From assembly GCA_030835125.1 (NCBI GenBank), contig JAUQWM010000050.1, forward strand, positions 7,341-71,340: a stretch of DNA of 64,000 bases, given 5' to 3'. Below the pieces are notes generated by a model. The model had not been told where the DNA came from. It searched no databases and was given only the letters and a program-made list of their open reading frames with translations. This DNA is from Gemmatimonadaceae bacterium (GTDB lineage Bacteria; Gemmatimonadota; Gemmatimonadetes; Gemmatimonadales; Gemmatimonadaceae). A program made the position numbers and the translations under genes. Numbering within the stretch: the stretch's first letter is position 1; the number at the start of each line of letters is the position of its first letter. Shown piece after piece: positions 5,735-44,623 of this stretch.

Positions 5735-6199
5735 GTGAGTCGTCAGATTCGAACGGGCCTTGTTCTGTCGGTCTTCGCGACGGCCTCTGCCGCGCTCGTC
5801 GGCGCGCAGACCGTCCAGCAGGTCTGGCAGGCCGACATACAGATTCGGACCCTGGAGGTCACCAAGACCAGGACGTCGCTGATGGTCCGCGTCCTCGTGT
5901 ACAGTGACAACAACGACGAGGCAAAGGACTCCCGGCTCCTCGTGCTGTTGCCGGTGGGGGCGGGCCTCGAACGGATTCCGCCGGGCTGCGCGGCGAGTGC
6001 CGGCCCGTCGATGGTGCCGTCACTGCGCGCCATGGTGCAGTGCGAACTGGGCGCGATCCCCGTCCGCGGGTTCCGCGAAGTGTTGCTGAGCACGACGCTG
6101 CCACCCGACGGCATGCCGAAGCGTTTCGGCGTCTTCGCCTATAGTGGCACGCCGGACCCGACCCCGGCGAACAATTACGCCGAGCGGATCATCCCATGA
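5735..6199 (+). CDS. Secreted protein with Ig-like (CARDB/DUF11-like) domain
   Basis: GTG start. Signal peptide MSRQIRTGLVLSVFATASAALVGAQT. A beta-rich pattern ends in TPDPTPANNYAE, as in CARDB/DUF11 domains. The stop overlaps the start of the next gene by 4 nt. Confidence 0.55.
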   Translation: MSRQIRTGLVLSVFATASAALVGAQTVQQVWQADIQIRTLEVTKTRTSLMVRVLVYSDNNDEAKDSRLLVLLPVGAGLERIPPGCAASAGPSMVPSLRAMVQCELGAIPVRGFREVLLSTTLPPDGMPKRFGVFAYSGTPDPTPANNYAERIIP

Positions 6200-14304: not shown

Positions 14305-14559
14305 GGGCGTGAGTCTCGAGCTCCGATTCGCAGGGTAGCACGGCGAGGTGTCTGCGCGGCGCGCCTGACGGGGTATGCCCGCGCGGGGCCCCACCATCTC
14401 CCCTGCCACAGCCCTCGTTCCGGGCGGTAAGAGGTCTCAGGTGAGGGATAACCCGGCTGAACGGTCCCTGATTCTCAGCGGGATTTCGCGCGCAAGGCCC
14501 TTCCGCGCCGTGCAATGCGGGATAAGAATCGTGCACCTCTCCCCGCCGTGATCCCCGCC

Positions 14560-17500
14560 ATGCCCAAGACGATTCGCCTGATCGGACTCGCCCTCTCGCT
14601 GCTCCCCGCCACGCACGCAGCCGGCCAGCCTGCCCGCACACCGCCACGGTCTGCTGCACCGGCGCCAGCGGTCGACTCGGTGCTGTTCAACAGCCTGCGC
14701 TTCCGGCTGCTCGGTCCGTTTCGCGGTGGCCGGTCCACCGCCGTCGCGGGCTTCGCCGCCCAGCCGCACACGTTCCTCGTCGGCTCCACCGGCGGCGGCG
14801 TCTGGAAGACCGAGGACGCTGGCATGTCGTGGAAGAACATCACGGACGGATTTTTCGGCGGATCCATTGGCGCCGTCGACATCGCCGACTCGGACCCCAA
14901 CGTCATCTACGTTGGCACGGGCTCGGCGGATATCCGCGGCAACTCATCGGCCGGCCGCGGTGTCTGGAAGTCTGTTGACGCGGGCGCAACGTGGGTCTTC
15001 GTGGGCTTGCCCGAGTCCGGCGCCATCCGCCGCATCGAGGTCCACCCGACCAACCCGGACCTCGTCTACGTGGCCGCGCTCGGCCATCCGTTCGGGAAGA
15101 ATCCCGAGCGCGGCGTGTTCCGGTCGAAGGACGGCGGTAAGACCTGGGATCACGTGCTGGCGCTGAATGACTCGACCGGCATGTCGGACCTGGCGATGAA
15201 TCCGAAGAACCCTCGCGTCCTGTACGCCGCGGCGTGGCGCGCCGAACGCAAGCCGTGGACGCTGATCTCCGGTGGGCCGGAGGGTGGCGTCTACCAGTCC
15301 ACCGACGGCGGCGACACCTGGAAGAAGCTTGGTGGTGGATTGCCAACCGGCATCGTCGGCAAGATCGGCGTGACCGTCTCGGCAGCGAACCCGGATCGCG
15401 TCTGGGCGATGATCGAGGCCGAGCCTGACGGCGGGGTGTACCGAACGGACGACGCCGGGAAGACGTGGACCCGGACGAACAGCGAGAACAAGCTCCGCCA
15501 GCGGGCGTGGTACTACACGCGCATCGTGGCCGACCCGGTCGACGAGAACACGGTCTACGGACTGAACGTGCAGATGTTCCGCTCGGTCGACGGCGGCAAG
15601 ACGTTCGATGTGATCAACGTGCCGCACGGCGACACCCACGACCTCTGGATCAACCCGGCCAACCGGAACGTCATGGTGCTGGGCGACGATGGCGGCGGCG
15701 TGGTCTCGGTCAACCGCGGGAAGACGTGGTCGTCGATGAACCTGCAGCCGACCGCGGAGTTCTATGATGTGGTGGTCGACAACGGGTTCCCGTATCGGGT
15801 GTATTCGTCACAGCAGGACAACACGAGCATCAGCCTGGCCGCGTGGCAGGGACCCCACCTCCTCCATCCGCTCGCGGATTGGCGGTATGCGTCGGCGTGC
15901 GAGACGGGGCCGGTGGCGCTGCATCCGGATCACCCCCAGGTGATGTACGGTGGGTGCTACGGCGGCGCGATCAGTCGCTGGGACACCGAGACCGACGAGC
16001 GCCGGACGGTGATCGTCTACCCGCAGCTCCAACTCGGCCAGGCGGCGAAGGACCTCAAGTACCGGTTCCAGTGGGTGTCGCCCATTCTCGTGTCGAAGCA
16101 CGACCGGAACACGGTTTACCACGCGTCGCAATACGTCCATCGCACGCGCGATGGCGGCATGAGCTGGGAGACGATCAGTCCGGACCTGACCACCAACGAC
16201 AAGACGAAACAGGAAGCGTCCGGCGGCCCGATCAACAACGACGTCACCGGCGTCGAGATCACCAACGTCATTTTTGCGCTGGCGGAGGATCCGGTCGACG
16301 CGCGGACGTTGTGGGCCGGCAGCGACGACGGTCGCCTCCACATCACGAGAGACGGCGGCACCTCGTGGCAGGACATCACACCACCCGGCATGCCGACGTA
16401 CGGCACGGTGGAGAACATCGACCTGTCCGCGCACCGGCCGGGGCGCGCGTTCGTGGGCGTACAGGCGTTCCGGCTGGACGACTTCCGGCCATACATCTTC
16501 AAGACCGAAGACTACGGCCGGACATGGACCCTGGTGGTGAATGGCATGGCGACGGGAAGTCCCGTGCGTTCGGTGCGCGAAGACCCGGTCAAGGATGGCG
16601 TTGCCTATGCCGGGACGGAACACGGCTTGTACGTCACGTTCGACGGCGGGCGTCGCTGGCAGGCGATGCAGCTCAACCTGCCCGTGTCGCCGATCGCGGA
16701 CATGCGCGTCCACCGCAACGATCTCGTCGTGGCGACGCAGGGGCGGTCGCTCTGGATCCTGGACGATCTCACGCCGTTGCATCAGCTGGCCGACGTCGCG
16801 TCAGGCGCGCGCGCGCACCTCTACACGCCGCGTGATGCCTGGCGAGTGCAGGTGGGCGGCGGCGGCGCAGGCGGCGTTGAAGCGGCGCCCGACCCCGCAC
16901 CGGCCGGCGCCATCATCCAGTACTACCTGGCGACACCCGATTCGGCCATCCGGATCGAGATACTCGATGCCCGTGGCGCGAGTGTCCGCTCGTTCTCGAC
17001 GGACACCGCGGCGGCCCGGCAGAACGGCACGACGGTGCTGGCGATCCGGCGCGGCGGCAACCGGCTGATCTGGGACCTCACCTATGCCGGTCCCCGCTAT
17101 CCGAAGAACGCCGTCACGTGGGGATACACCGGCGGCGTGAAGGCTCCACCCGGTGCCTATCGCGTTCGCCTGACGGCCAACGGTGTGACCATGGAGAAAC
17201 CGTTCCGCGTGCTCGCGGACCCGCGCCTGACGGTGTCGCAGACCGACTACGATGAGCAGTTCCGGATCGCCATCGAGGTTCGCGACTCGATCACCTCGGT
17301 CACGAACGCCATCGAGACGATTCGCTCGCTGAAGGAACAGGCCGACCGGGCGCTCGAGCAGGCCGCACGCATCGAACGCACGAGCGACGTGAAGCCGATG
17401 GCGGACTCGCTCGCGTCCCGACTGACCGGCGTGGAAGGCGGCCTCATTCAAACGAAGAGCCAGAGTGGCCAGGACCCGATCCGGTTCGCCGGGAAGCTCG

Positions 17501-17739
17501 ACAACCAGCTCGCCGAGCTCTATGGCTACGTGACGGGACCGAGTGGCTACATCGCGGGTGGTGTCGAAGGTCGGCCCACGCGTGGCGCGCTGGAACGGCT
17601 CGCCGACCTGCAGCAGGTGTGGGCGCCGCTGCGCGCGCAGCTCCAGCAGATCATCGACCGGGATCTCGCCGCATTCAACGCGCTGCTCCAGCGGCTCGGC
17701 CTCGGCGCGATCGTTGTTCCGCGTCGGACGATCATGTGA
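14560..17739 (+). CDS. Sortilin/VPS10-type BNR (Asp-box) repeat protein, glycosyl-hydrolase-like
   Basis: Signal peptide MPKTIRLIGLALSLLPATHAAGQ. Repeated Asp-box motifs are present (SxDxGxTW: TEDAGMSW, SVDAGATW, SKDGGKTW, STDGGDTW, TDDAGKTW, SVDGGKTF, TRDGGMSW, TRDGGTSW, TEDYGRTW). Confidence 0.8.
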   Translation: MPKTIRLIGLALSLLPATHAAGQPARTPPRSAAPAPAVDSVLFNSLRFRLLGPFRGGRSTAVAGFAAQPHTFLVGSTGGGVWKTEDAGMSWKNITDGFFGGSIGAVDIADSDPNVIYVGTGSADIRGNSSAGRGVWKSVDAGATWVFVGLPESGAIRRIEVHPTNPDLVYVAALGHPFGKNPERGVFRSKDGGKTWDHVLALNDSTGMSDLAMNPKNPRVLYAAAWRAERKPWTLISGGPEGGVYQSTDGGDTWKKLGGGLPTGIVGKIGVTVSAANPDRVWAMIEAEPDGGVYRTDDAGKTWTRTNSENKLRQRAWYYTRIVADPVDENTVYGLNVQMFRSVDGGKTFDVINVPHGDTHDLWINPANRNVMVLGDDGGGVVSVNRGKTWSSMNLQPTAEFYDVVVDNGFPYRVYSSQQDNTSISLAAWQGPHLLHPLADWRYASACETGPVALHPDHPQVMYGGCYGGAISRWDTETDERRTVIVYPQLQLGQAAKDLKYRFQWVSPILVSKHDRNTVYHASQYVHRTRDGGMSWETISPDLTTNDKTKQEASGGPINNDVTGVEITNVIFALAEDPVDARTLWAGSDDGRLHITRDGGTSWQDITPPGMPTYGTVENIDLSAHRPGRAFVGVQAFRLDDFRPYIFKTEDYGRTWTLVVNGMATGSPVRSVREDPVKDGVAYAGTEHGLYVTFDGGRRWQAMQLNLPVSPIADMRVHRNDLVVATQGRSLWILDDLTPLHQLADVASGARAHLYTPRDAWRVQVGGGGAGGVEAAPDPAPAGAIIQYYLATPDSAIRIEILDARGASVRSFSTDTAAARQNGTTVLAIRRGGNRLIWDLTYAGPRYPKNAVTWGYTGGVKAPPGAYRVRLTANGVTMEKPFRVLADPRLTVSQTDYDEQFRIAIEVRDSITSVTNAIETIRSLKEQADRALEQAARIERTSDVKPMADSLASRLTGVEGGLIQTKSQSGQDPIRFAGKLDNQLAELYGYVTGPSGYIAGGVEGRPTRGALERLADLQQVWAPLRAQLQQIIDRDLAAFNALLQRLGLGAIVVPRRTIM

Positions 17740-21916: not shown

Positions 21917-24900
21917 CTACATGATCGCTCCACCCCGCACGATGATGTGGGGCAGGTTCTTGAGGAGGCCGTTCAGCCTGGCGATCCGGCCGTTCACGAT
22001 GCCCTGCAATTCCTGCTGCACGGCACCGGTCTCCGTCACGAGCTCCCCGTGCCGGCGACCCTGGGCATCGGTCGGCCTGGTGATCGTGCGACTGACCGCG
22101 CCGCTCAGCGAGCCCACTTCCTCACGCAGCCTCGGATACTGACGGTAGCCGAGCCCCGGAATCGGGCGGAGCAACTTCTCATCCCGCAGCTTCTTCAACT
22201 CGACCAGTGCCCCTTCGGCCTCGTTGAGCGCGTCGCGTTCATTCGGGGCGTTCTTCCTGATGTTGTCGACCAGTGAGGTGAGTTGGCCGATCAGGTCCTC
22301 GGTCCGGTCGATGACGTTGGTCACGCGTCCGCCAAGGTCGCGCAGGTTGAGCGCGAGATCGCGCTGCGCTTCGAGGTCGGCGGTGGTGACGTTGGCGCGA
22401 GGGTCGAGTTCGACCGTGAGCGGCCTGGTGAACTCGCGACCCGCGAGCTGCATCTTCACCGTGAACGGTCCCGGCACGACGGACGGTGCGCCACCACCCC
22501 GTCCGCCGCGCCCGCCCCCGCCGCCGCGACCGGCCGCCGGTCCCGCGCCGGATTCGGTCGTCGCCGGGTCATACGCCAGGTCCCACACGAGCTGGTTCAC
22601 GCCGGCGTCGCGCGGTCCATTGCGCAGCGTGCGGACGACCTTCCCGGCCGGATCGGAGATCGTCGCCACCACCGGCGACTGGCTCGGTGCCTTCAGGTAG
22701 TACTTGATCAACGCCCCGTTCGGCGGATTCTCGCCGACCCACACCTTCTGCCCCAGGTTGCCATCATTGGCCCACATGACCCAGCGCGTCGCCGGCCGGA
22801 TGTCGAAGACGTATGCGTCGGCCGCCATGGCCTCGCCCAGCCGCTGCAGGGGTGTGATGTCGTCCATCACGTAGATGCCGCGCCCGTGCGTCGCGATGAT
22901 GAGGTCGTTGTCGCGGGGATGCACCCAGAGGTCACGCACCGGCGCCGCCGAGAGGCCGTTGCGCAGCGAGTGCCAGCGCCCGCCGCGATCCCACGACGCG
23001 AAGATGCCGAACTCCGTGCCGAGGTAAAGCAGGTTCGGGTTCCGCGGATCCTGCCGCACGACATGCACCCAGCCGCGGGCGGGGAGGTTCCCGGTGATCC
23101 GCCGCCAGCTCTGCCCGTAGTCCGTCGTCATGTAGGCATACGGCGTGTAGTCCCCCGTCTGCCAGTGGCTCGCGGCCACGAACGCGGTCGCGGCATCGTG
23201 GGGTGAGGCATCCACGGTCGAGATCCAGGCGTTGGGTGCCAGTCCCGGCAGGTTCCGCGCCGTGTTGGTCCACGTCTTCCCGCCGTCACGGGTCACCTGG
23301 ACGTTGCCGTCGTCGGTGCCGGCCCAGATCACGTTCCCGTCCTTCGGCGAGGGCGCGATGCTCAACAGCGTGCTGTGGAACTCGGCGGCGGTGTTGTCGG
23401 TGACGATGTCGCCGCCTGACGACTTCTGCTTCGCCTTGTCGTTGGTGCTCAGGTCGGGCGAGATGACGTCCCACGACTGCCCGTAATTGGTGGACCGGAA
23501 CACGACGTTGCCGCCGAAATAGACCGTGCCCGGGTTCTGCGGCGACAGCGCAATGGGCGCGTTCCAGTTGAACCGGTACGCGTGGTGCTCGAGCGCGTCC
23601 CCGGCCGACCCGACGCGATTCGGGTCCGGGTGGATACTGCGCTGGTCGCCAGTCCGGATGTCGGTGAGGGTGATGTTGCCGCCCTGCGACGCCGAGTAGA
23701 CCAGCCACGGACGCGCGAGGTCGGGGACGGCGTAGAACCCGTCGCCACCGCTGACGGTCACCCACGCATTCTTCCGGTTGCCCTCGGGAGTGAGCGTGCG
23801 GCTGGGGCCGCACCAATGGCCGTTGTCCTGGAGTCCGCCGCAGAGATTGTACGGCTTCTCCATGTCGTAGTTCACGTGGTAGAACTGCGTGAACGCCACC
23901 GTGTTCGGCACGTCCCAGTTCCGGCCGGCGTCATAGCTGACCTGCCACCCGCCATCGCTTCCCTCGACGATGTAGTCCGGGTCCGTGGGGTCGATCCACA
24001 TCGCCTGGTGATCACCATGGACGCCCTGGCCGATGGTGCGGAACGTGCGACCGCCGTCCTCGCTCTTGTACAGCCCGCCGGACAGCGTGTACACGACATT
24101 GGGATTGCGCGGGTCGGCGCGAATATCGGCGTAGTAGAAGGGGCGGAAGTTGATGTTCCGTTCGCGGCTGACCACCTGCCAGGTCGCGCCGGCGTCCTCG
24201 GTGCGCCAGAGCTCTCCCTCGTCCACCGTCTCGGTGATCATGTAGACGATATCCGGGTTCGCGCGGTGCACAGAGACACCAATGCGGTCCATCGCGGTCC
24301 GCGGCAGCCCGTGGGTGTTCCCGGGGCCGGACAGCTTCGTCCAGGACTCGCCCCCGTCGCTCGACTTGTACAGCGCCGTCTCCCCGCCGCCGGACGTGAA
24401 GAACCACGGCCAGCGCTGGTGCGTGTACATCCCGGCGTAGACGATGTTGGCGTTGTTGGGGTCGATGTCGACGTCCGAGCATCCGGTCAGGTTGTTGCGG
24501 TAGAGGATCTTCCGCCAGGTCCGGCCGCCGTCGGTGGTCTTGTAGAGGCCCCGATCCTCGTTAGGCCCCCACGTCCGGCCGAGGGCACAGAGGTACACCA
24601 CGTCGGGGTTGCGCGCGTCGATGCGCATCCGGGGGACCTTCTCGGTGTGCTCCAGGCCGAGCTTTTTCCAGGTCCGGCCGGCATCGAGCGACTTGTACAC
24701 CCCGTCGCCGACGGAGGCCGAGTTCCGCGGGTTTCCCTCACCGGTGGCGAGGTAGATGATGTTCGGGTCGGAGGGGGCGATGACTATGTCACCGATCGAC
24801 GCGTTGTCCTGGTCGTCGAAGAGCTGGGTAAACGTGATCCCCCCGTTGGTGGTCTTCATCAGGCCACCGGCGGCCGAGCCGATGTAGAAGACGCCCCGGT

Positions 24901-25126
24901 TACCGGGGACGCCGACCACCGCGGGAATACGACCGGCCTGGTTGGCGGGTCCGATGGCCCGCCACCGGAGCCTGCTGATCGCATTCAGCTCGGGGGAGTC
25001 CTTGACCGACACCGCCTGTGCCGCAGGCGTCGCGGGTGGACTGCCGGCTCGCTGGGCATTGGTGGCCTGCGGCAGCAACGCCGGGAGCGTGATGGCCAGC
25101 GCGAGCGTGGAAACGTGGCGAGTCAT
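21917..25126 (-). CDS. Sortilin/VPS10-type BNR (Asp-box) repeat protein, paralog of 14560..17739
   Basis: Signal peptide MTRHVSTLALAITLPALLPQATNAQ. Asp-boxes are present (SLDAGRTW, TTDGGRTW, SSDGGESW, TEDAGATW, SEDGGRTF, STNYGQSW, TRDGGKTW, TTDYGQSW). The overall layout is the same as in the other copy. Confidence 0.8.
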   Translation of the reverse strand: MTRHVSTLALAITLPALLPQATNAQRAGSPPATPAAQAVSVKDSPELNAISRLRWRAIGPANQAGRIPAVVGVPGNRGVFYIGSAAGGLMKTTNGGITFTQLFDDQDNASIGDIVIAPSDPNIIYLATGEGNPRNSASVGDGVYKSLDAGRTWKKLGLEHTEKVPRMRIDARNPDVVYLCALGRTWGPNEDRGLYKTTDGGRTWRKILYRNNLTGCSDVDIDPNNANIVYAGMYTHQRWPWFFTSGGGETALYKSSDGGESWTKLSGPGNTHGLPRTAMDRIGVSVHRANPDIVYMITETVDEGELWRTEDAGATWQVVSRERNINFRPFYYADIRADPRNPNVVYTLSGGLYKSEDGGRTFRTIGQGVHGDHQAMWIDPTDPDYIVEGSDGGWQVSYDAGRNWDVPNTVAFTQFYHVNYDMEKPYNLCGGLQDNGHWCGPSRTLTPEGNRKNAWVTVSGGDGFYAVPDLARPWLVYSASQGGNITLTDIRTGDQRSIHPDPNRVGSAGDALEHHAYRFNWNAPIALSPQNPGTVYFGGNVVFRSTNYGQSWDVISPDLSTNDKAKQKSSGGDIVTDNTAAEFHSTLLSIAPSPKDGNVIWAGTDDGNVQVTRDGGKTWTNTARNLPGLAPNAWISTVDASPHDAATAFVAASHWQTGDYTPYAYMTTDYGQSWRRITGNLPARGWVHVVRQDPRNPNLLYLGTEFGIFASWDRGGRWHSLRNGLSAAPVRDLWVHPRDNDLIIATHGRGIYVMDDITPLQRLGEAMAADAYVFDIRPATRWVMWANDGNLGQKVWVGENPPNGALIKYYLKAPSQSPVVATISDPAGKVVRTLRNGPRDAGVNQLVWDLAYDPATTESGAGPAAGRGGGGGRGGRGGGAPSVVPGPFTVKMQLAGREFTRPLTVELDPRANVTTADLEAQRDLALNLRDLGGRVTNVIDRTEDLIGQLTSLVDNIRKNAPNERDALNEAEGALVELKKLRDEKLLRPIPGLGYRQYPRLREEVGSLSGAVSRTITRPTDAQGRRHGELVTETGAVQQELQGIVNGRIARLNGLLKNLPHIIVRGGAIM

Positions 25127-25278
25127 GGTGTCACCGATTGAGGGCGGCCCAGGGGGATCGGGATGCCAGCAAATTTCGCCGCGCCGAGGCTGCTCGCCAG
25201 AGGGAATCCGTTCCGGCGATATCGGCGCGAACGGCCAGCGGAATTGCCGAAGGGACTCTGGGGCCCCACTTTTCCCCG

Positions 25279-26235
25279 ATGTCCCCAGCCAAGCGGTCGA
25301 AAAAGAAGCGCACGTCGGCACCGGCCGCGTCACGGGGTCTCGACGCGCGCCGCCTCACCGGCCCACCGCCGGCTGCCGTCGAGGCGCTGGCGCGCACGAT
25401 CGAGGAGGACGGTGGCGCCGTGCTCGCTCGCTACCGCGACCCCCTCGGCGGACACTGGCAGCTTCTTGCCGCGCTCCCCCTCAGCCGAGTGGAGCCGACG
25501 CCGTTCCAGCGTGACCTGTCGGAGGCTCACGTCGGGAAGGTCGTGAGGGCCATCGACAAGCTCGGCCGGTATCTCGATCCCATCATCGCGGTGCCGGCGA
25601 GCGACGGCCTGTACTGGTCTCCCAACGGCTTTCACCGGTTGTCCGCGATGCGTGAACTGGGCGCGAAGTCGATCGTGGCGCTGGTGATCCCCGAACCCGA
25701 GGTGGCGCACCACATCCTGCTCCTCAACACCGAGAAGGCGCACAACCTCAGGGAGCGCGCGATCGAGGTGGTCCGGCTCGCCGAAGCGCTAGCGGTGCTG
25801 GACGACCGTCCCGAAGTCGAGTTCGAGACCGAATTCGAGGAGGCCGCCCTGGTCACGCTGGGACTGTGCTATCAACAGGACGGGCGCTTCTCGGGAAGCG
25901 CCTATCATCCGATCCTGAGGCGCTGCGACCGGTTCCTGCGCCGATCGCTGCCGGACGCGCTCATGGAACGACGCTTGCGCGCCGACAAGCTCCTCGAGCT
26001 CAACGCCCTGGTGAACGCGGCGGTGGCGGCGCTCAAGGCGAAGGGGATGGAGAGTCCGTACCTCAAGGCCTTCGTGGTCGCCCGGATCAACCCGCTGCGG
26101 TTCCAGCGGAAGCCGACCGCGGATTTCGACGAGACGATCGACAAGATGCTCGGCTCGGCGCGCCGGTTCGATGCGGGGCGGATCAGGTCCGACCAGATCG
26201 CGCGTTCGGGCGGACCGCCGTCGGGAGAGGAGTAG
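25279..26235 (+). CDS. ParB/Sulfiredoxin (ParB N-terminal-like) domain protein, orphan
   Basis: LPLSRVEPTPFQRDLSEAHVGKVVRAIDKLGRYLDPIIAV...SPNGFHRLSAMRELGAKSIVALV fits the ParB-like nuclease/Srx fold pattern. A helical domain of about 200 aa follows. No parA or partition partner is adjacent. Confidence 0.65.
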   Translation: MSPAKRSKKKRTSAPAASRGLDARRLTGPPPAAVEALARTIEEDGGAVLARYRDPLGGHWQLLAALPLSRVEPTPFQRDLSEAHVGKVVRAIDKLGRYLDPIIAVPASDGLYWSPNGFHRLSAMRELGAKSIVALVIPEPEVAHHILLLNTEKAHNLRERAIEVVRLAEALAVLDDRPEVEFETEFEEAALVTLGLCYQQDGRFSGSAYHPILRRCDRFLRRSLPDALMERRLRADKLLELNALVNAAVAALKAKGMESPYLKAFVVARINPLRFQRKPTADFDETIDKMLGSARRFDAGRIRSDQIARSGGPPSGEE

Positions 26236-27108: not shown

Positions 27109-27333
27109 TCAGGCAGCGCCAACTTCGCGCGGGAGGCGAGTCAACGCCCAGGTGAGCATGTCCCGCACGAAGGAGTCAGGCTCGATCGCGCACCGAGCTA
27201 CGAGCGCGTAAACCAGATCGGGTTCGGCGTTCAATCCGGCTGCGAGAGCGGCCCTAAGCCGCGTCGACCCGTCATCGGCAGCCAGGGCACCGACCAGATT
27301 CGTTTCCTGAGCGTTCGTGCCTGTTTTGTTCAT
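27109..27333 (-). pseudogene. Possible N-terminal fragment of a HEAT-repeat protein (truncated after about 74 aa)
   Basis: The translation ...GALAADDGSTRLRAALAAGLNAEPDLVYALVARCAIEPDSFVRDMLTWALTRLP resembles the first HEAT-like repeats of longer proteins, but the frame ends at 27109. It sits at the left edge of the low-GC island. Low confidence. Confidence 0.3.
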
Positions 27334-27773
27334 GCCAATCCAGGCCTCGCCGTCTCGAGTTGGACCGGTTCGACGCCCGTTTGCACGCGATACGGCAGAC
27401 ACGCCAAGAGCGCCGCTTTGGTCGATAGCGGCCCTCGCCTTGTTGCAGTCATACCGCCATCCGCGCCGCATAACGCCACGTTTCAGCTGCGGCGACTCGT
27501 ACAAAGCGCCGTGGACGCGCGTAGCGCGCCTCGGCGCATACGACCGTCCGCCGTCAGCTGCAAACAACAGTTAGGCATCAAGATCTGAGGCGATGACTCT
27601 ACGAAGCATGACCAGGGGCCTCGCCCGTGCCCCCTCTTGTGCCCAGAACCCGCGTGCGTTTTGGCAACCCTCACTGCACCAGACTGAATCCCCGTCGCCG
27701 CGAGAGACTCCATGAAGATCCAAGGTTGGCGTCAACTGTGGGACGCGCCTTCACCGGAGAGCCGCACGCGATA

Positions 27774-28235
27774 TCAGTGACGCGCTAAAGCAGCGGAGAG
27801 ACGATCGAACTGGGCCAGCGACAGCGGGAGATTAGCCTGCAGCTCCCCGTTACATCCGTCGACCTGAAGCGCTCCCCGGTCCTCGTTCAAATAGATGAAC
27901 TCGCCATTCGAGGTGGCGATGCGCTCCAGAGCTTCGAGATCACCCCGGTCGTAGTCGGCTAACACCTGAATCAACACAGTCGGAGCAAGCGTTCCTCCGC
28001 ATGCGCCGTGGCAGTCGCCGTCGCCGTCATCGCAGTCAGTGTGCTTTGTTCCAGACTTCGATCCTTCCGTTCCGTCGTCCCAGTGCTGGCCACCCTGCGG
28101 ATTGCACACTTCCCAGAAGCAGGCAAAACAGTCCTCGACAACAGGGACAGCGTTTGCGGCGTAGGTGGAGCTAAAGAGCGCCATTACTCCGCCCGTTGTC
28201 AGGATGAGGGATAGCCCGAAGGCTCCGATCTTCAT
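27774..28235 (-). CDS. Small Cys-rich secreted protein (unknown family)
   Basis: A strong SD (GAGGAGG) lies 6 nt upstream of ATG 28235. Signal peptide MKIGAFGLSLILTTGGVMALFSSTYA. Seven Cys are clustered in EDCFACFWEVCNPQGG...HTDCDDGDGDCHGACGG, with an eighth Cys at DGCNGE near the C-terminus. A distinct C-terminal domain of about 70 aa follows the Cys cluster. The region is low-GC. Confidence 0.5.
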   Translation of the reverse strand: MKIGAFGLSLILTTGGVMALFSSTYAANAVPVVEDCFACFWEVCNPQGGQHWDDGTEGSKSGTKHTDCDDGDGDCHGACGGTLAPTVLIQVLADYDRGDLEALERIATSNGEFIYLNEDRGALQVDGCNGELQANLPLSLAQFDRLSAALARH

Positions 28236-28248
28236 GATGTCCTCCTCG

Positions 28249-29382
28249 TTATCGAGCAGTGAGTGAAAAAGACCAGACTTCAAGAAACGGATAGCCCGCC
28301 TCGTCCTCTTCGTACGCGTAGGTTATGCCTTCGCACGCGAACCCTCGCATATTCGGCTCCAGTCTTACCGAGGCGAGGACAACGCGACGGCCTGGGTCTA
28401 TGACCTCGAGAACACTGTCGTACTCAGCCGATGTCCCTGACGACGATCGCCGTTGTGACTGCGCCGTCTTCGATTTGCGACCGTCATCGAAGGACGGGTC
28501 CCTCACGGAATGCAACACCCAGAGCAGACCACTGGCGTCCTCCTGCACGTCGATGATCATGGGGCCTGTTGCCTTGGGATTTGATGGATCGCGCCGCCAA
28601 GGCTTGAACCACGTTGTTTCCACGAGAAGTCTTAGATCCAGGGTCCCGGCAGTATCCCACCGCTCGATCGTGTACTCCGTAAGCCTCGCGGACCACACTC
28701 GCCCGTCCGAAGCTGGCGCAAGCCGACGAGCGGATACAAATGGATCATCAGGTCTCATTTCCCCTGTCGTGCTTCCGAACGAACCACCTAAGACCCCTGC
28801 GGAGCTAAGAACGTGAATAGGAAGTCCAATCCGGTCGCGCGTTGGAATCGAACCTTGAAGTACAACGGCTCCATTCGCAAACGGTGCAGCCGCGGCTGGT
28901 GACGTCGGAAGAGTCAGAGTGCGGACATATTTCAGGGTGGAATCGAAAACCGTGACGCGCCGCGCCGACGGTTGGAATACCCACAGCGAGTCTCCCGGAC
29001 CAAACTTCAGTGGGAAAGCAACTCTAAACTCGCCCGGTCCTTCACCAGCGCGGCCAACCGAACGTTGAAACCGACCGAGATGGTCAAAAAGCAGGACCTC
29101 CCCTGGCCGCGACATGGTAACGGCGGCGAACTGCTGTCCTCGCTTCCGACATGCCAGCCAGGGAGCAGCGCCAATCGACCCAGGTCCATCCTTATCTCCG
29201 ACTGCTGCAACGCGAGTTGCGATGATGCGGCAATTTGGGCAGCTAGTTTCTCGCGTGACTTGAGCCGACTGCTGTGAGTGCACCCGGCCCGCCGTAAGTG
29301 CACTCAAGAGCAGCACACTCAACACGAGCTGACGCGGGCCTTTGTCAGGCAATCCCAGTAACGGTCGACGTGTTTGAGTCAT
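28249..29382 (-). CDS. 6-bladed beta-propeller-like secreted protein (GRAGEGPGEF motif)
   Basis: ATG 29382 overlaps the upstream stop (ATGA). There is a hydrophobic N-terminus (LVLSVLLLSALTAG). The GRAGEGPGEF motif is characteristic of the DUF5128 / BF3164-type 6-bladed beta-propeller family. The protein is beta-rich throughout. Confidence 0.6.
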   Translation of the reverse strand: MTQTRRPLLGLPDKGPRQLVLSVLLLSALTAGRVHSQQSAQVTRETSCPNCRIIATRVAAVGDKDGPGSIGAAPWLACRKRGQQFAAVTMSRPGEVLLFDHLGRFQRSVGRAGEGPGEFRVAFPLKFGPGDSLWVFQPSARRVTVFDSTLKYVRTLTLPTSPAAAAPFANGAVVLQGSIPTRDRIGLPIHVLSSAGVLGGSFGSTTGEMRPDDPFVSARRLAPASDGRVWSARLTEYTIERWDTAGTLDLRLLVETTWFKPWRRDPSNPKATGPMIIDVQEDASGLLWVLHSVRDPSFDDGRKSKTAQSQRRSSSGTSAEYDSVLEVIDPGRRVVLASVRLEPNMRGFACEGITYAYEEDEAGYPFLEVWSFSLTAR

Positions 29383-30542
29383 CGCGAGCGCGGCATGGGA
29401 ATCCGCATCACCCACGCGCCTTGATCGTTCCACTGCGCAAACCACACTCCATCAACAGAAGCCTGAATCGCAGCCACAGTGCGATCGGGCCATGTCCGGC
29501 ACAGTACTCGCTTCAGGAGCCCGCTCAACGCGAGCGTCGCGAGGCATGTCCGTCGCGAGCCCGGGTAGTCGTTCTCGACGACGATAACTTCGCCCGTGCT
29601 ACTCGCAGGGGCTGAGGCCAGCCTAACGACTGGAAACGTTCCTGGCAGATCGAGGTCCGCCAGCAACTCGGTAATCAGAGTGCGGAATTCCCTACGCAAC
29701 TCCGGCTCGTACCGCTGGGATGCCATCTCAGCCTCATACCATTTCGAGATTGAGTCCCGCACTACGGGCAGGTGGCGCGATGCAAGAGCGCGCGAGGGGC
29801 CGTCTCCGACGATTGGGGCGCTGCGGCGCGGTCGACTGACGAGCGTCCAAACACTATCGATCGAGCGACCGATCACTATCATCTGACCGGACGTCCTAAC
29901 GAGGAGGGGCGGAGACTCGTACGGAAGCCGCAGAGAGGTTCTCAAAGCCCCCTTGGAGCGAAGACGCCGCTTGGAACCTTGAAATTTCGCGATGGTGTCG
30001 ACGTCTAGCGTTGAGCGAACAACACGGAACACGGCCAACGAATCCACTCTCATTCCGGATGCAGGTGCTCCCTGCCTCTCCACCGCAATCCAGAGCGAGT
30101 CGCCCTCGCACCAGGCGCTTTGCGTTTTGGCACGCGACAATAATCCTGACGGTAGTTGGATAGAGCGCGGCTCGCCTTTCCCCGAGGGCGCCATCCAAGT
30201 GACTCGCTGCAGCTGATCGTCAACCCAACCACCAGTATCGTCACATCCAAACACGCGACTCACCATCCTGTACTCGCCTGGGCCAGCTCCGGCGCGACCA
30301 ATCCGTGCGCCGCTACCTGTCAGAAGATCAATAACTGCGATGCCCTGCCGCGGTCCACTCACCCAGAGATATCTGCCTGCCGCAATCGACAGTTGATCGA
30401 CTTCAGTAATTCCGAACTCCAAAACCGATATCGAGTCGACAGCGGGGCCGGCAGAATGGAGCGAGTGGATCGCGGGCTCCGCCGCGACGGCCGCGATCTC
30501 AATCAGCGCCGCTGACCCGACAACAAGCGCAAGAGTCCACAT
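29379..30542 (-). CDS. 6-bladed beta-propeller-like protein, paralog of 28249..29382
   Basis: N-terminal hydrophobic segment MWTLALVVGSAALIEIAAVAA. The equivalent motif is GRAGAGPGEYR. Length and beta-rich composition are similar to the paralog. The region is low-GC. Confidence 0.6.
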   Translation of the reverse strand: MWTLALVVGSAALIEIAAVAAEPAIHSLHSAGPAVDSISVLEFGITEVDQLSIAAGRYLWVSGPRQGIAVIDLLTGSGARIGRAGAGPGEYRMVSRVFGCDDTGGWVDDQLQRVTWMAPSGKGEPRSIQLPSGLLSRAKTQSAWCEGDSLWIAVERQGAPASGMRVDSLAVFRVVRSTLDVDTIAKFQGSKRRLRSKGALRTSLRLPYESPPLLVRTSGQMIVIGRSIDSVWTLVSRPRRSAPIVGDGPSRALASRHLPVVRDSISKWYEAEMASQRYEPELRREFRTLITELLADLDLPGTFPVVRLASAPASSTGEVIVVENDYPGSRRTCLATLALSGLLKRVLCRTWPDRTVAAIQASVDGVWFAQWNDQGAWVMRIPMPRSR

Positions 30543-30756
30543 TGGTCTTCACTCGATGCGTTGACGAAGAATAGCAAGACTATCCCCATGGGATTGCACG
30601 ATTGAGCAAATGGACCTGTCGCAAGGGAAAGTGGCCACCGTCAGTTCGGGGGTGCGAAGCGAGGACCGCCGTGTACATACAGACGATTGCGGGCAGATCC
30701 ACAGTTCGATCCGCTCTTCGGATATCGTGCCAACCATCAGACCGGCCGCTCCCCGC

Positions 30757-31050
30757 TCAACAAAGGCGACCTTTCGGGACACAGCCGGCGGCGTACGCGA
30801 TCACACCGATGAGAGACCCGAGAAGGAGCACTACTCGGGGAAATAGCACTGCATTGATCAGGCCTATTGCTGCCTCAGTCGGAAACTCCCTGCGATCGCG
30901 TCGGATCCACGCGGCCATATCGACCACAGCAGTGCGTACCGCTGCGACTCGGCTTGTTTGCCGACTCTTTAGCTCTTCGCGAAGTTGGTCGAGCTCTTGT
31001 TTTACCGAGCCGAGTGTCGGCTCCGGCACCGGGACGTGGGTGTCTGTCAT
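30757..31050 (-). CDS. Small hypothetical membrane protein (coiled N-terminus plus one TM segment)
   Basis: A 97-aa ORF at the head of the low-GC island. It contains LGSVKQELDQLREELKSRQ and then the hydrophobic LFPRVVLLLGSLIGVIAYAAG. The SD is weak. Coding status is uncertain. Confidence 0.3.
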   Translation of the reverse strand: MTDTHVPVPEPTLGSVKQELDQLREELKSRQTSRVAAVRTAVVDMAAWIRRDRREFPTEAAIGLINAVLFPRVVLLLGSLIGVIAYAAGCVPKGRLC

Positions 31051-31433
31051 TCTTGAGAGATGCCTCTCGGGCGAAGGCGGGCAGGTACTGAGTGCTTACA
31101 TCTCACGGCCAGATTGAGGCGACAAGCGCAGCGCCATCAGCGTGCTGCGCAATCTCTCACGAGCTGACAGCTTCCGGGAGGTCGCCCCTTCGATAAGGCG
31201 CCGCCGTACAACCACGGCGGCCTAACGCAGAGTAGCTGGAACTGGATAACCCGTTTGAGCGGGACCGGTACGATACGGTTCCACCAGACCTGCCCAAGTT
31301 GGCTATCCAGACCTGTATAACCCGTTTCGACGACCCCGGCAATGATCAGGACTGCACTCTACAGCACCCGCTCGCCCCTCAGATTGTCCGTCCGAAGCAA
31401 GAAACGGGAGACCCGGGTGTAATCCCGAATCCC

Positions 31434-31481
31434 CCGCCCTTTGCGCTTTGCGCCCTGCGCTCCGCCCTCCGCCCTCTGCCC

Positions 31482-31482
<1 letters not shown>
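31434..31482. repeat. Tandem heptanucleotide array, 7 units (CCGCCCT/TTGCGCT family), abutting the rpoC stop codon
   Basis: Read directly: ccgccct ttgcgct ttgcgcc ctgcgct ccgccct ccgccct ctgccct. The last base overlaps the rpoC stop (tta on the + strand at 31482-31484). Confidence 0.85.
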
Positions 31483-35798
<4,316 letters not shown>

Positions 35799-35801
35799 CG
35801 A

Positions 35802-40472
<4,671 letters not shown>

Positions 40473-44112: not shown

Positions 44113-44187
44113 GACACGCTGACGGGGGACGTGAGACGGGTGACGGGAGATCGTTCCCTGCCAGCCTCACACCTGTTCTTCAAACAG

Positions 44188-44260
44188 AGCTCGCGACCGG
44201 GATTGAACCGGTGACCTCACCCTTACCAAGGGTGTGCTCTACCGACTGAGCTACGCGAGC
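44188..44260 (-). tRNA. tRNA-Thr (anticodon GGU)
   Basis: Minus-strand sequence GCTCGCGTAGCTCAGTCGGTAGAGCACACCCTTGGTAAGGGTGAGGTCACCGGTTCAATCCCGGTCGCGAGCT. The acceptor stem has 7 bp, the anticodon stem is CACCC/GGGTG with loop TTGGTAA, and the T-loop is GGTTCAATCC. No CCA is encoded. Confidence 0.9.
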
Positions 44261-44276
44261 GGGCCTTCAACGATAG

Positions 44277-44349
44277 AGCGGGAGACGGGGCTCGAACCCG
44301 CGACATCGAGCTTGGAAGGCTCGCGCTCTACCAACTGAGCTACTCCCGC
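44277..44349 (-). tRNA. tRNA-Gly (anticodon UCC)
   Basis: Minus-strand sequence GCGGGAGTAGCTCAGTTGGTAGAGCGCGAGCCTTCCAAGCTCGATGTCGCGGGTTCGAGCCCCGTCTCCCGCT. The anticodon loop is CTTCCAA. Confidence 0.9.
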
Positions 44350-44429
44350 AATCCCCAGCAACGAAGCCATCAGTATCCCGCTCCAGCACTACGCCTGCCA
44401 CGTTCGCATTCGTTAGGTCCGCACCACCA

Positions 44430-44512
44430 TGGTGGGGGAAGGATTCGAACCTTCGAAGGCGTGAGCCGGCAGATTTACAGTCTGCTCCCGTTGGCCGCTT
44501 GGGTACCCCACC
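44430..44512 (-). tRNA. tRNA-Tyr (anticodon GUA), long variable arm
   Basis: Minus-strand sequence GGTGGGGTACCCAAGCGGCCAACGGGAGCAGACTGTAAATCTGCCGGCTCACGCCTTCGAAGGTTCGAATCCTTCCCCCACCA. The anticodon loop is CTGTAAA. Confidence 0.9.
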
Positions 44513-44550
44513 GCAAGCGCGCTTTCGCTGAGGCCGATTCGCCGTCCCAG

Positions 44551-44623
44551 AGCTGACGGCGAGAGTCGAACTCGCAACCGCCTGATTACAAATCAGGTGC
44601 TCTGCCAGTTGAGCTACGTCAGC
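44551..44623 (-). tRNA. tRNA-Thr (anticodon UGU)
   Basis: Minus-strand sequence GCTGACGTAGCTCAACTGGCAGAGCACCTGATTTGTAATCAGGCGGTTGCGAGTTCGACTCTCGCCGTCAGCT. The anticodon loop is TTTGTAA. Confidence 0.9.

Follow-up and report, generated by a model that had tools for sequence, protein, structure and literature searches.

The question raised by this locus is how a stretch of low-GC DNA came to lie directly downstream of rpoC in a Gemmatimonadaceae genome, and what it carries. We analyzed 64,000 nucleotides of one contig, called the window below, the minus strand of which contains tuf, four tRNA genes, and then rpoB (35802-40472) and rpoC. An earlier note on this DNA described an island of about 3.7 kb after rpoC (27600-31430) as a horizontally acquired insertion that carries a short operon. 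We consider it likely that the region is a piece of an accessory operon that genomes exchanged recently and this lineage most probably acquired, and that illegitimate recombination lodged it in a plasticity zone between rpoC and rpsL. All of the open reading frames (ORFs) listed by the earlier note exist where it placed them, and its overall reading holds in three respects: the stretch is foreign in composition, horizontal exchange of its core has taken place, and it bears none of the classical signatures of an integrating element. What it proposed about two small ORFs, the paralogy of two propeller genes, read-through from rpoC and the extent of the island is corrected in the following paragraphs.

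The reading is carried mainly by a segment of 3,333 bp within this region (Table 1). Contigs from several other metagenome samples contain copies of this segment that are 99.2% identical to it (referred to as L085-type copies) in a different genomic context, which confirms the proposed horizontal transfer as far as the core of the stretch is concerned. At both ends of the segment, identity between the window and the L085-type copies falls from 99% to none within one base. The L085-type copy is flanked on one side by the upstream region of a BNR/sortilin gene, itself 82% identical to the window homologue at 14515-17739, and on the other side by a BrnT/CopG toxin-antitoxin pair and then an IS110 transposase; in L088, this IS110-family transposase is located 1.7 kb beyond the segment. 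The backbone of the L085-type contigs has a GC content at third codon positions (GC3) of 0.77-0.82, lower than that of the window backbone. In total, 27 differences separate the window from the L085-type copies, and 13 of them, including single-base indels, fall in the non-coding tail at the 3' end of the segment.

The composition of the region also sets it apart from the rest of the window. At 59.6%, compared with 68.1% elsewhere, the GC content between 27600 and 31430 is lower than in any other 3.8-kb stretch of the window; in sliding windows of 500 nt the minimum is 58.0-58.6%, i.e. a drop of about 8-10 points. The low-GC island is therefore a real anomaly but a weaker one than was claimed, since the hand count of 53-56% in the earlier note was too low and the drop does not reach 15 points. 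The contrast at the codon level is much stronger than the contrast in overall GC content: GC3 is 0.57-0.68 in the island ORFs and the adjoining HEAT-repeat gene fragment, 0.79-0.89 in the genes to the left, and 0.946-0.954 in rpoC and rpoB. Of all parts of the window, those of 3.3 kb that start at 27.5-28.0 kb deviate most in tetranucleotide usage (L1 distance z = 3.5-4.0), with a TETRA correlation of 0.14-0.18 against a mean of 0.62. The deviation expected by the earlier note is thus seen in both sliding-window measures.

A second version of the cassette is found in L081, a contig of a sister lineage whose RpoC is 95.6% identical to that of the window. It is located 2.5 kb downstream of rpoC, is 78% identical to positions 27796-30799 of the window, and includes a complete lipoprotein gene. 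Because of this occurrence, the locus is not unique to the window genome. Among 19 relatives with an RpoC identity of at least 75% and at least 4 kb of sequence, no homologue of the cassette genes C, D or E is present downstream of rpoC, so that the distribution among relatives is patchy (present in L081, absent from 19) rather than uniform at this position. A metagenome scan with an alignment of E re-found only the L081 contig. The DNA homology between the window and all relatives spans the ribosomal-protein/rpoBC cluster and ends at the rpoC stop codon or terminator; RpoC is 94%, 90% and 87% identical to those of the Gemmatimonadaceae metagenome-assembled genomes L001, L002 and L003, respectively. 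Judging by the names of L001 and of L107, a near-identical contig labelled Gemmatimonadaceae_JABWBJ01, the window genome appears to belong to the GTDB genus-level group JABWBJ01.

The junctions of the segment indicate how it may have been joined to its present surroundings. In what follows, left and right refer to the reading direction of the minus strand, with the left junction on the rpoC side. At the right junction the segment abuts a fragment of a HEAT-repeat gene locus, which is 84% identical at the nucleotide level to L097/L098 and ends in a second truncation at 27122. Only about 71-73 of the roughly 219 codons of the full gene are left, and the earlier note was correct in seeing a truncated HEAT-repeat gene at this flank (the left one in forward coordinates). 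Here, both parental sequences, the L085-like one and the L097-like one, contain the same overlapping 10 nt, and on this ground we attribute the junction to illegitimate, microhomology-mediated recombination. At the left junction, L085 has six more nucleotides (AGACGG) in common with L081 than the window has, which hints that the window copy is derived. Truncated genes are present at both borders of the segment, i.e. a lipoprotein-gene remnant and the HEAT fragment.

Signatures of dedicated mobility were searched for in the window and the island, and the searches bear out the earlier statement that no integrase, transposase, tRNA target or terminal repeat is visible. The island ORFs contain no integrase or transposase domain, no tRNA gene is found at the insertion (the only tRNA genes in the window are at 44187-44623), and neither terminal direct or inverted repeats nor a target-site duplication was found at the window or L085 junctions. 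A repeat scan of 27467-27773 gave no attC-like inverted repeat, although no dedicated attC model was run. As to a phage origin, there was no phage match, and viral contigs gave only propeller matches of 26-32%; plasmid matches were restricted to the HEAT fragment and came from actinomycete plasmids at about 71-73%.

One candidate explanation, the interruption of an older gene by the segment, was rejected. ORF A (to 30800) and the sequence after 27466 do together form an open frame of 202 aa. All 1,198 homologues of this fusion match only its last 73 or so residues, and since these residues are the N-terminus of the 219-aa HEAT protein from an internal Met, the in-frame fusion is due to chance.

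Two observations on the surroundings of the related sequences may be added. In L097 (1-12500), the intact HEAT gene is located in an island of HigB, BrnT/BrnA and PIN/RHH toxin-antitoxin pairs, together with an IS110 transposase and an OLD-like TOPRIM protein. In L088 (940-2674), the BrnT/CopG pair and IS110 that follow the cassette in L085/L088 include an IS110 with 66% nucleotide identity to that of L097.

Table 1. Features of the region downstream of rpoC, in window coordinates.
Feature	Position	Strand	Description
rpoC	31482..35798	-	last backbone gene
G-rich 7-nt tandem repeats	31439..31482	-	about 6.5 copies (TRF), between rpoC stop codon and hairpin
Terminator-like hairpin	31395..31438	-	15-bp GC-rich stem (31403-31438), then U-rich tail UCUUGCUU
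Low-GC spacer	30800..31394	-	window-specific; homologue in no fetched locus except same strain
ORF A	30757..31050	-	97 aa; spans left junction; last 14 codons inside exchanged segment, in a frame other than that of the lipoprotein remnant
Exchanged segment	27467..30799	-	3,333 bp; 99.2% identical to L084-L087 and partly L088-L091, where both flanks differ
Lipoprotein-gene 3' remnant	30549..30818	-	about 82-89 codons
C	29379..30542	-	387 aa, predicted exported; rare family
D	28249..29382	-	377 aa, predicted exported; six-bladed NHL-type beta-propeller; start overlaps C stop
E	27774..28235	-	153 aa, predicted exported; true start 28235; conserved downstream partner of D-type propellers
Non-coding 3' tail of segment	27467..27773	-	13 of the 27 differences from L085-type copies
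10-nt microhomology	27467..27476	.	GCGTTA(T/G)(G/A)CG; in L085-like sequence and in L097-like region upstream of HEAT gene
HEAT-repeat gene-locus fragment	27122..27476	-	355 bp: 143 nt upstream region and first codons (start 27333)

The genes of the segment are under constraint. Between the window and L081, the ratio of nonsynonymous to synonymous divergence (dN/dS) is 0.22 for C, 0.16 for D, 0.18 for E and 0.17 for the lipoprotein remnant, which means that all four are real, constrained coding sequences. They are tightly spaced, with 6 nt between the remnant and C, an ATGA overlap (29379-29382) between C and D, and 13 nt between D and E. The 77-aa ORF with a GTG start (30549-30782) in the earlier note exists and does end 6 nt before C, but it is not a gene of its own; it lies within the 3' remnant of a 324-aa lipoprotein gene, which is intact in L081 (7861-8835). 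The frame of the remnant is closed by a stop codon exactly where the homology with L081 begins. In a third lineage, a gene of at least 203 aa likewise ends 6 nt before the C homologue.

Homology searches with the island ORFs gave one borderline family assignment, that of D, but no Pfam match for C, E or ORF A. The score of D against Pfam DUF5128 is 24.4 bits (gathering threshold 22.9), and only 74 of the 321 profile positions are covered. The AlphaFold2 model of D is an all-beta, six-bladed propeller (predicted local distance difference test 88.5, predicted template-modeling score 0.86), for which the best Foldseek matches are NHL domains (E = 1e-13), the Bacteroides structures 3s9j and 4raa, and peptidyl-hydroxyglycine lyase. 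We found 56 relatives of D, several of which are annotated as Gemmatimonadaceae or Gemmatimonadales. An N-terminal CxxC and a GxGPGE motif of D are invariant or nearly so. A literature search for DUF5128 returned nothing. The family of C is very small (58 matches among 1.84 billion representatives); C has the NHL-like blade region GRxGxGPGE(Y/F) in common with D. The two proteins had been taken for paralogous beta-propellers joined by an ATGA overlap. The overlap and the six-bladed, NHL-type nature of D stand, but C and D are only distantly related (hhalign probability 97% over 87 columns; BLASTP E = 0.002 over 66 residues).

E was described before as a Cys-rich secreted protein with a strong Shine-Dalgarno sequence, and this description is upheld: GAGGAGG is located 7 nt before the ATG, and export is predicted from the signal-peptide-like N-terminus. 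This is followed by a Cys/His-rich segment and a conserved C-terminal alpha/beta domain (LNxERxAxQxxGC...LPL). The C-terminal domain is well modeled, and the Cys/His-rich N-terminal half could not be modeled. E has no Pfam match even at E <= 10 and no sequence match in PDB, and a fold search, for which the N-terminal half had no model, gave no significant match. Its close homologues form only three 90% clusters.

Small exported Cys/His-rich proteins with the architecture and C-terminal motif of E are found directly downstream of D homologues in five independent contexts. The D homologues with such a neighbor are only about 30-50% identical to D and lie in unrelated contexts, including L082/L092, L104 and L105. 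Because an E-like protein follows such divergent D homologues, we regard D and E as a conserved gene pair. Relatives of the pair are widespread in Gemmatimonadota. In the L085-type copies (L084-L087), a 2-nt deletion at the equivalent of 29648-29649 shifts the frame of C, leaving ORFs of 305 and 89 aa, and D and E are intact, which suggests that the D-E pair is the selected core of the cassette. PADLOC gave no anti-phage defense match in the region.

Between rpoC and the segment, the DNA contains a repeat array, a hairpin, a spacer and most of ORF A. The array of heptamers reported earlier at the rpoC stop was located there; in L081 (about 6040-6090), GGGYAGAC 8-mers stand where the window has its 7-mers, after the rpoC stop codon and ahead of the terminator hairpin. 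The position and part of the sequence of the hairpin are conserved in the two closest relatives, L081 and L001, and the 106-nt stretch that holds it folds with z = -3.2; a scan for a strict terminator consensus did not pick it up. The hairpin is most simply read as the rpoC terminator, in which case read-through would be at best partial. Since a conserved hairpin with a U-rich tail stands directly after rpoC, simple expression by read-through, as previously supposed, is less likely.

The spacer includes the first 83 codons of ORF A. A sensitive alignment with the left flanks of L085 and L081 gave only chance 8-13-mers besides the shared terminator arm, and a search for non-coding RNA in the island gave only one sub-threshold chance match. 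ORF A had been taken for the gene of a small transmembrane protein. It spans the left junction and has neither a Pfam nor an NCBIfam match, and the homologues of its fusion with the HEAT fragment match the HEAT part only; ORF A is probably not a conserved gene. Within the spacer, an 18-nt direct repeat (AAACGGGTTAT(C/A)CAG(T/G)TC on the minus strand) is present at 31239-31256 and 31310-31327, 71 nt apart. A loosely similar motif is found 60 nt before the left junction in L085, and this may be chance.

The extent of the island has to be seen in relation to the usual arrangement at this place. We surveyed the spacer downstream of rpoC in loci L003-L080 and in window positions 1-31481. The rpoC-rpsL spacer is 86-735 nt long in 37 loci, and this is the arrangement of most Gemmatimonadota and outgroups. 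Many Gemmatimonadaceae/Gemmatimonadales have spacers of 1.8-8.8 kb or of more than 7-10 kb, some of them longer than 10 kb. The expanded spacers carry acyltransferases, Ser/Thr kinases, a subtilase, a TonB-dependent receptor with SusD, and glycosyltransferases. The rpoC-rpsL spacer thus has the look of a plasticity zone that recurs between two core operons. No rpsL is found in the 31 kb beyond rpoC in the window, and therefore the 3.7-kb island, although a real foreign stretch, makes up only the foreign, rpoC-proximal part of a variable zone of greater extent, which has taken the place of the ancestral rpoC-rpsL junction.

Several other genes in this zone may be mentioned. L029 contains an independent, second low-GC cassette of a propeller and a Cys-rich protein between rpoC and rpsL (14591-16612, minus strand), which encodes an exported peptide of 108 aa that is Cys-rich at its C-terminus, a membrane-anchored protein of 180 aa without a Pfam match, and a DUF5128-like propeller of 352 aa. 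In the window, a minus-strand gene at 1274-2404, 29 kb from rpoC, is 59% identical to a gene of L002 (14750-15805; RpoC identity 90%) that lies immediately downstream of rpoC there, which suggests that the window lineage has undergone a large insertion or rearrangement. At 14515-17739 and 21917-25333 the window encodes two Sortilin-Vps10/BNR paralogues, each of about 1,070-1,140 aa, the first being the homologue of the gene that abuts the L085-type cassette. A plus-strand ORF of 365 aa at 25138-26235 has a native-like GC3 of 0.84, belongs to no Pfam or NCBIfam family, and has no homologue downstream of rpoC in the relatives.

We propose the following history for the region. The DNA from about 27.1 to 31.4 kb would be a mosaic of foreign DNA within the zone that replaces the ancestral rpoC-rpsL junction. 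An accessory operon encoding a lipoprotein, the propellers C and D, and the Cys/His-rich protein E would circulate among Gemmatimonadaceae, and its 3,333-bp fragment would have been exchanged between genomes very recently (0.8% divergence), with the window lineage as the most likely recipient. The segment would have been stitched to other gene fragments by microhomology-mediated joining without a dedicated integrase or transposase. In this process the 5' two-thirds of the lipoprotein gene would have been lost, and C, D and E would have been kept as a tightly coupled, selectively maintained unit. All three are predicted to be exported on the basis of signal-like N-terminal sequences. D and E may form a complex in which E docks via its conserved C-terminal domain, and the Cys/His-rich segment of E, possibly with the CxxC of D, may hold a metal or a disulfide/redox center. 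Transcription could start in the 0.6-kb spacer or come from residual read-through of the rpoC terminator.

Several observations weigh against this account, and some of them would fit a locus that was inherited in place. If the lipoprotein-C-D-E operon had followed rpoC since before the split between the window and L081 lineages, the window copy would have been trimmed by deletions, the 99.2%-identical copies elsewhere would have come from a window-like genome, and the low GC3 would be a property of the family or the locus. We consider this unlikely, although the cassette occupies one locus in one orientation downstream of rpoC in both genomes, its synonymous divergence (dS) between them (0.57-0.99) is similar in size to that of rpoBC (0.56-0.59), and the widespread D/E relatives in Gemmatimonadota include a native GC3 of 0.92 in L104. 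Over a dS of about 0.6-1, no amelioration is seen: GC3 of the cassette is 0.57-0.68 in the window and 0.59-0.65 in L081, against backbone values of 0.95 and 0.84. Moreover, the flanks of the cassette in the window and in L081 are unrelated on both sides, the 19 other relatives lack it, and the end of the L085 copy would need to match a deletion endpoint in the window exactly. The six L081-like nucleotides that L085 has and the window lacks also speak against inheritance in place, but this argument for the derivation of the window copy could be chance (about 1 in 4,000), and a transfer into the window lineage is only the more likely course of its recent exchange with L085-type genomes. In addition, no empty site was found, and a scan of the 0.6-kb spacer gave no sigma-70-type promoter, although such a scan may not suit this phylum. 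The functional part of the account is weakened in that the N-terminal half of E could not be modeled and no relative of known function, by structure or by sequence, was found for E.

A further point against our account is the agreement, to within 6 nt, of the left junction in three contexts; it would not be expected from random illegitimate recombination and hints at a defined end. Both ends are identical in the window and the L085-type copies, and the left one is within 6 nt of the end of the L081 homology, as would be expected of a discrete mobile unit with defined ends that was moved in trans, e.g. by the IS110-family transposase near the L088 copy, or by an integron-like or rolling-circle mechanism. 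The IS110 transposase and BrnT/CopG pair that flank the L085-type copy, and the similar IS110-BrnT set that adjoins the intact HEAT gene in L097, are consistent with such a unit. We nevertheless think it very unlikely, given that the segment starts inside a truncated gene and has no terminal inverted or direct repeats, target-site duplication or attC-like hairpin, that no recombinase gene is located in or beside the window copy, and that insertions are known from only two contexts; the 10 nt of microhomology that the window copy has with an unrelated locus at its right junction are typical of illegitimate joining. An assembly artefact, in which a repeat shared among strains joined the rpoC contig to unrelated DNA, would be hardly credible. 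The segment does occur in at least two metagenome contexts, and such a repeat can in principle mislead assemblers, but two assemblies from other samples, L083 (100%) and L107 (99.91% over 7.9 kb), continue across both junctions and reach rpoC and RibD_C, so that the arrangement is not a chimera; the flanks just outside the segment are also low in GC3.

Recent exchange of an operon fragment followed by illegitimate joining is thus the reading that we prefer for the DNA itself. As to its function, sequence features and gene linkage lead us to infer that D and E may constitute an exported complex with a metal or disulfide center; we go no further than inference here, because half of E is unmodeled and E lacks relatives of known function. 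A bolder reading, which we regard as quite unlikely, is that the pair represents an undescribed two-component extracytoplasmic system of Gemmatimonadota, possibly an enzyme or binding module with a small subunit that bears a metal or cross-linked redox center. It would move between species as a self-contained cassette, with the rpoC-rpsL slot as a phylum-wide landing zone.

The results are of use in three ways, none of which overturns current understanding. They record at nucleotide resolution how a small cassette was exchanged very recently between uncultured soil Gemmatimonadaceae, with the mark of microhomology at one junction. They show the spacer between rpoBC and rpsL-rpsG-fusA as a recurrent plasticity zone in Gemmatimonadota. 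Finally, they flag a selection-maintained, uncharacterized pair, a propeller and its Cys/His-rich exported partner, as a tractable biochemical target.

Compared with known systems, D resembles the DUF5128/DUF4221-type six-bladed propellers of Bacteroidota (PDB 3s9j, 4raa) and NHL domains in its score and fold, and C has the GxGPGE(F/Y) motif. The Gemmatimonadota proteins differ in their N-terminal CxxC and Cys/His-rich partner, and the match to the family covers only 74 residues; to our knowledge, a pairing of this kind has not been described for the Bacteroides families. In methylamine dehydrogenase (MauB/MauA) and quinohemoprotein amine dehydrogenase (beta/gamma), the gene of a periplasmic propeller lies beside that of a small exported protein containing Cys and Trp. 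The likeness of D-E to these enzymes lies in the logic of the gene pair only and may serve as a lead, since there is no sequence similarity, the propeller has six blades rather than seven, and the cassette contains no MauG, radical-SAM or other maturation genes. Neither E (even at E <= 10) nor D or C matches the Pfam families of these amine dehydrogenases.

The hairpin after rpoC has the features of a rho-independent terminator, with its 15-bp stem, the UCUUGCUU tail and equivalents in L081 and L001, and is predicted to act as one. As for the region as a whole, it shares its deviant composition and sporadic distribution with classical integrase-mediated genomic islands but has no integrase and no tRNA/tmRNA site with direct repeats; it lacks the terminal inverted repeats and target-site duplication of an insertion sequence or composite transposon, and the repeat scan of 27467-27773, which did not include a dedicated attC model, found no attC of the kind that ends an integron gene cassette. 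The sharp 10-nt junction between unrelated parents and the truncated border genes are like the products of homology-facilitated or microhomology-mediated illegitimate recombination after DNA uptake. Unlike in the homology-facilitated process, no homologous anchor was identified, and since no second parent is known for the left junction, this comparison concerns the one of the two junctions that can be assessed.

The closest counterparts are the genomic islets of hot spots flanked by core genes, which likewise deviate in composition, are patchy among close relatives and form mosaics of gene fragments. The site, between the conserved rpoBC and rpsL-rpsG-fusA (str) operons, where the spacer has repeatedly been expanded in the phylum, is that of an islet in a plasticity region. 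The present one departs from typical hot-spot islets in that it has no integrase, tRNA target or flanking repeats, shows microhomology at one junction, and has no rpsL within 31 kb, which means that rearrangement has affected the slot as well. The locus is thus a genuine, well-delimited case of recent horizontal exchange, ordinary in kind as an islet in a hot spot, the cargo of which is an uncharacterized conserved gene pair.

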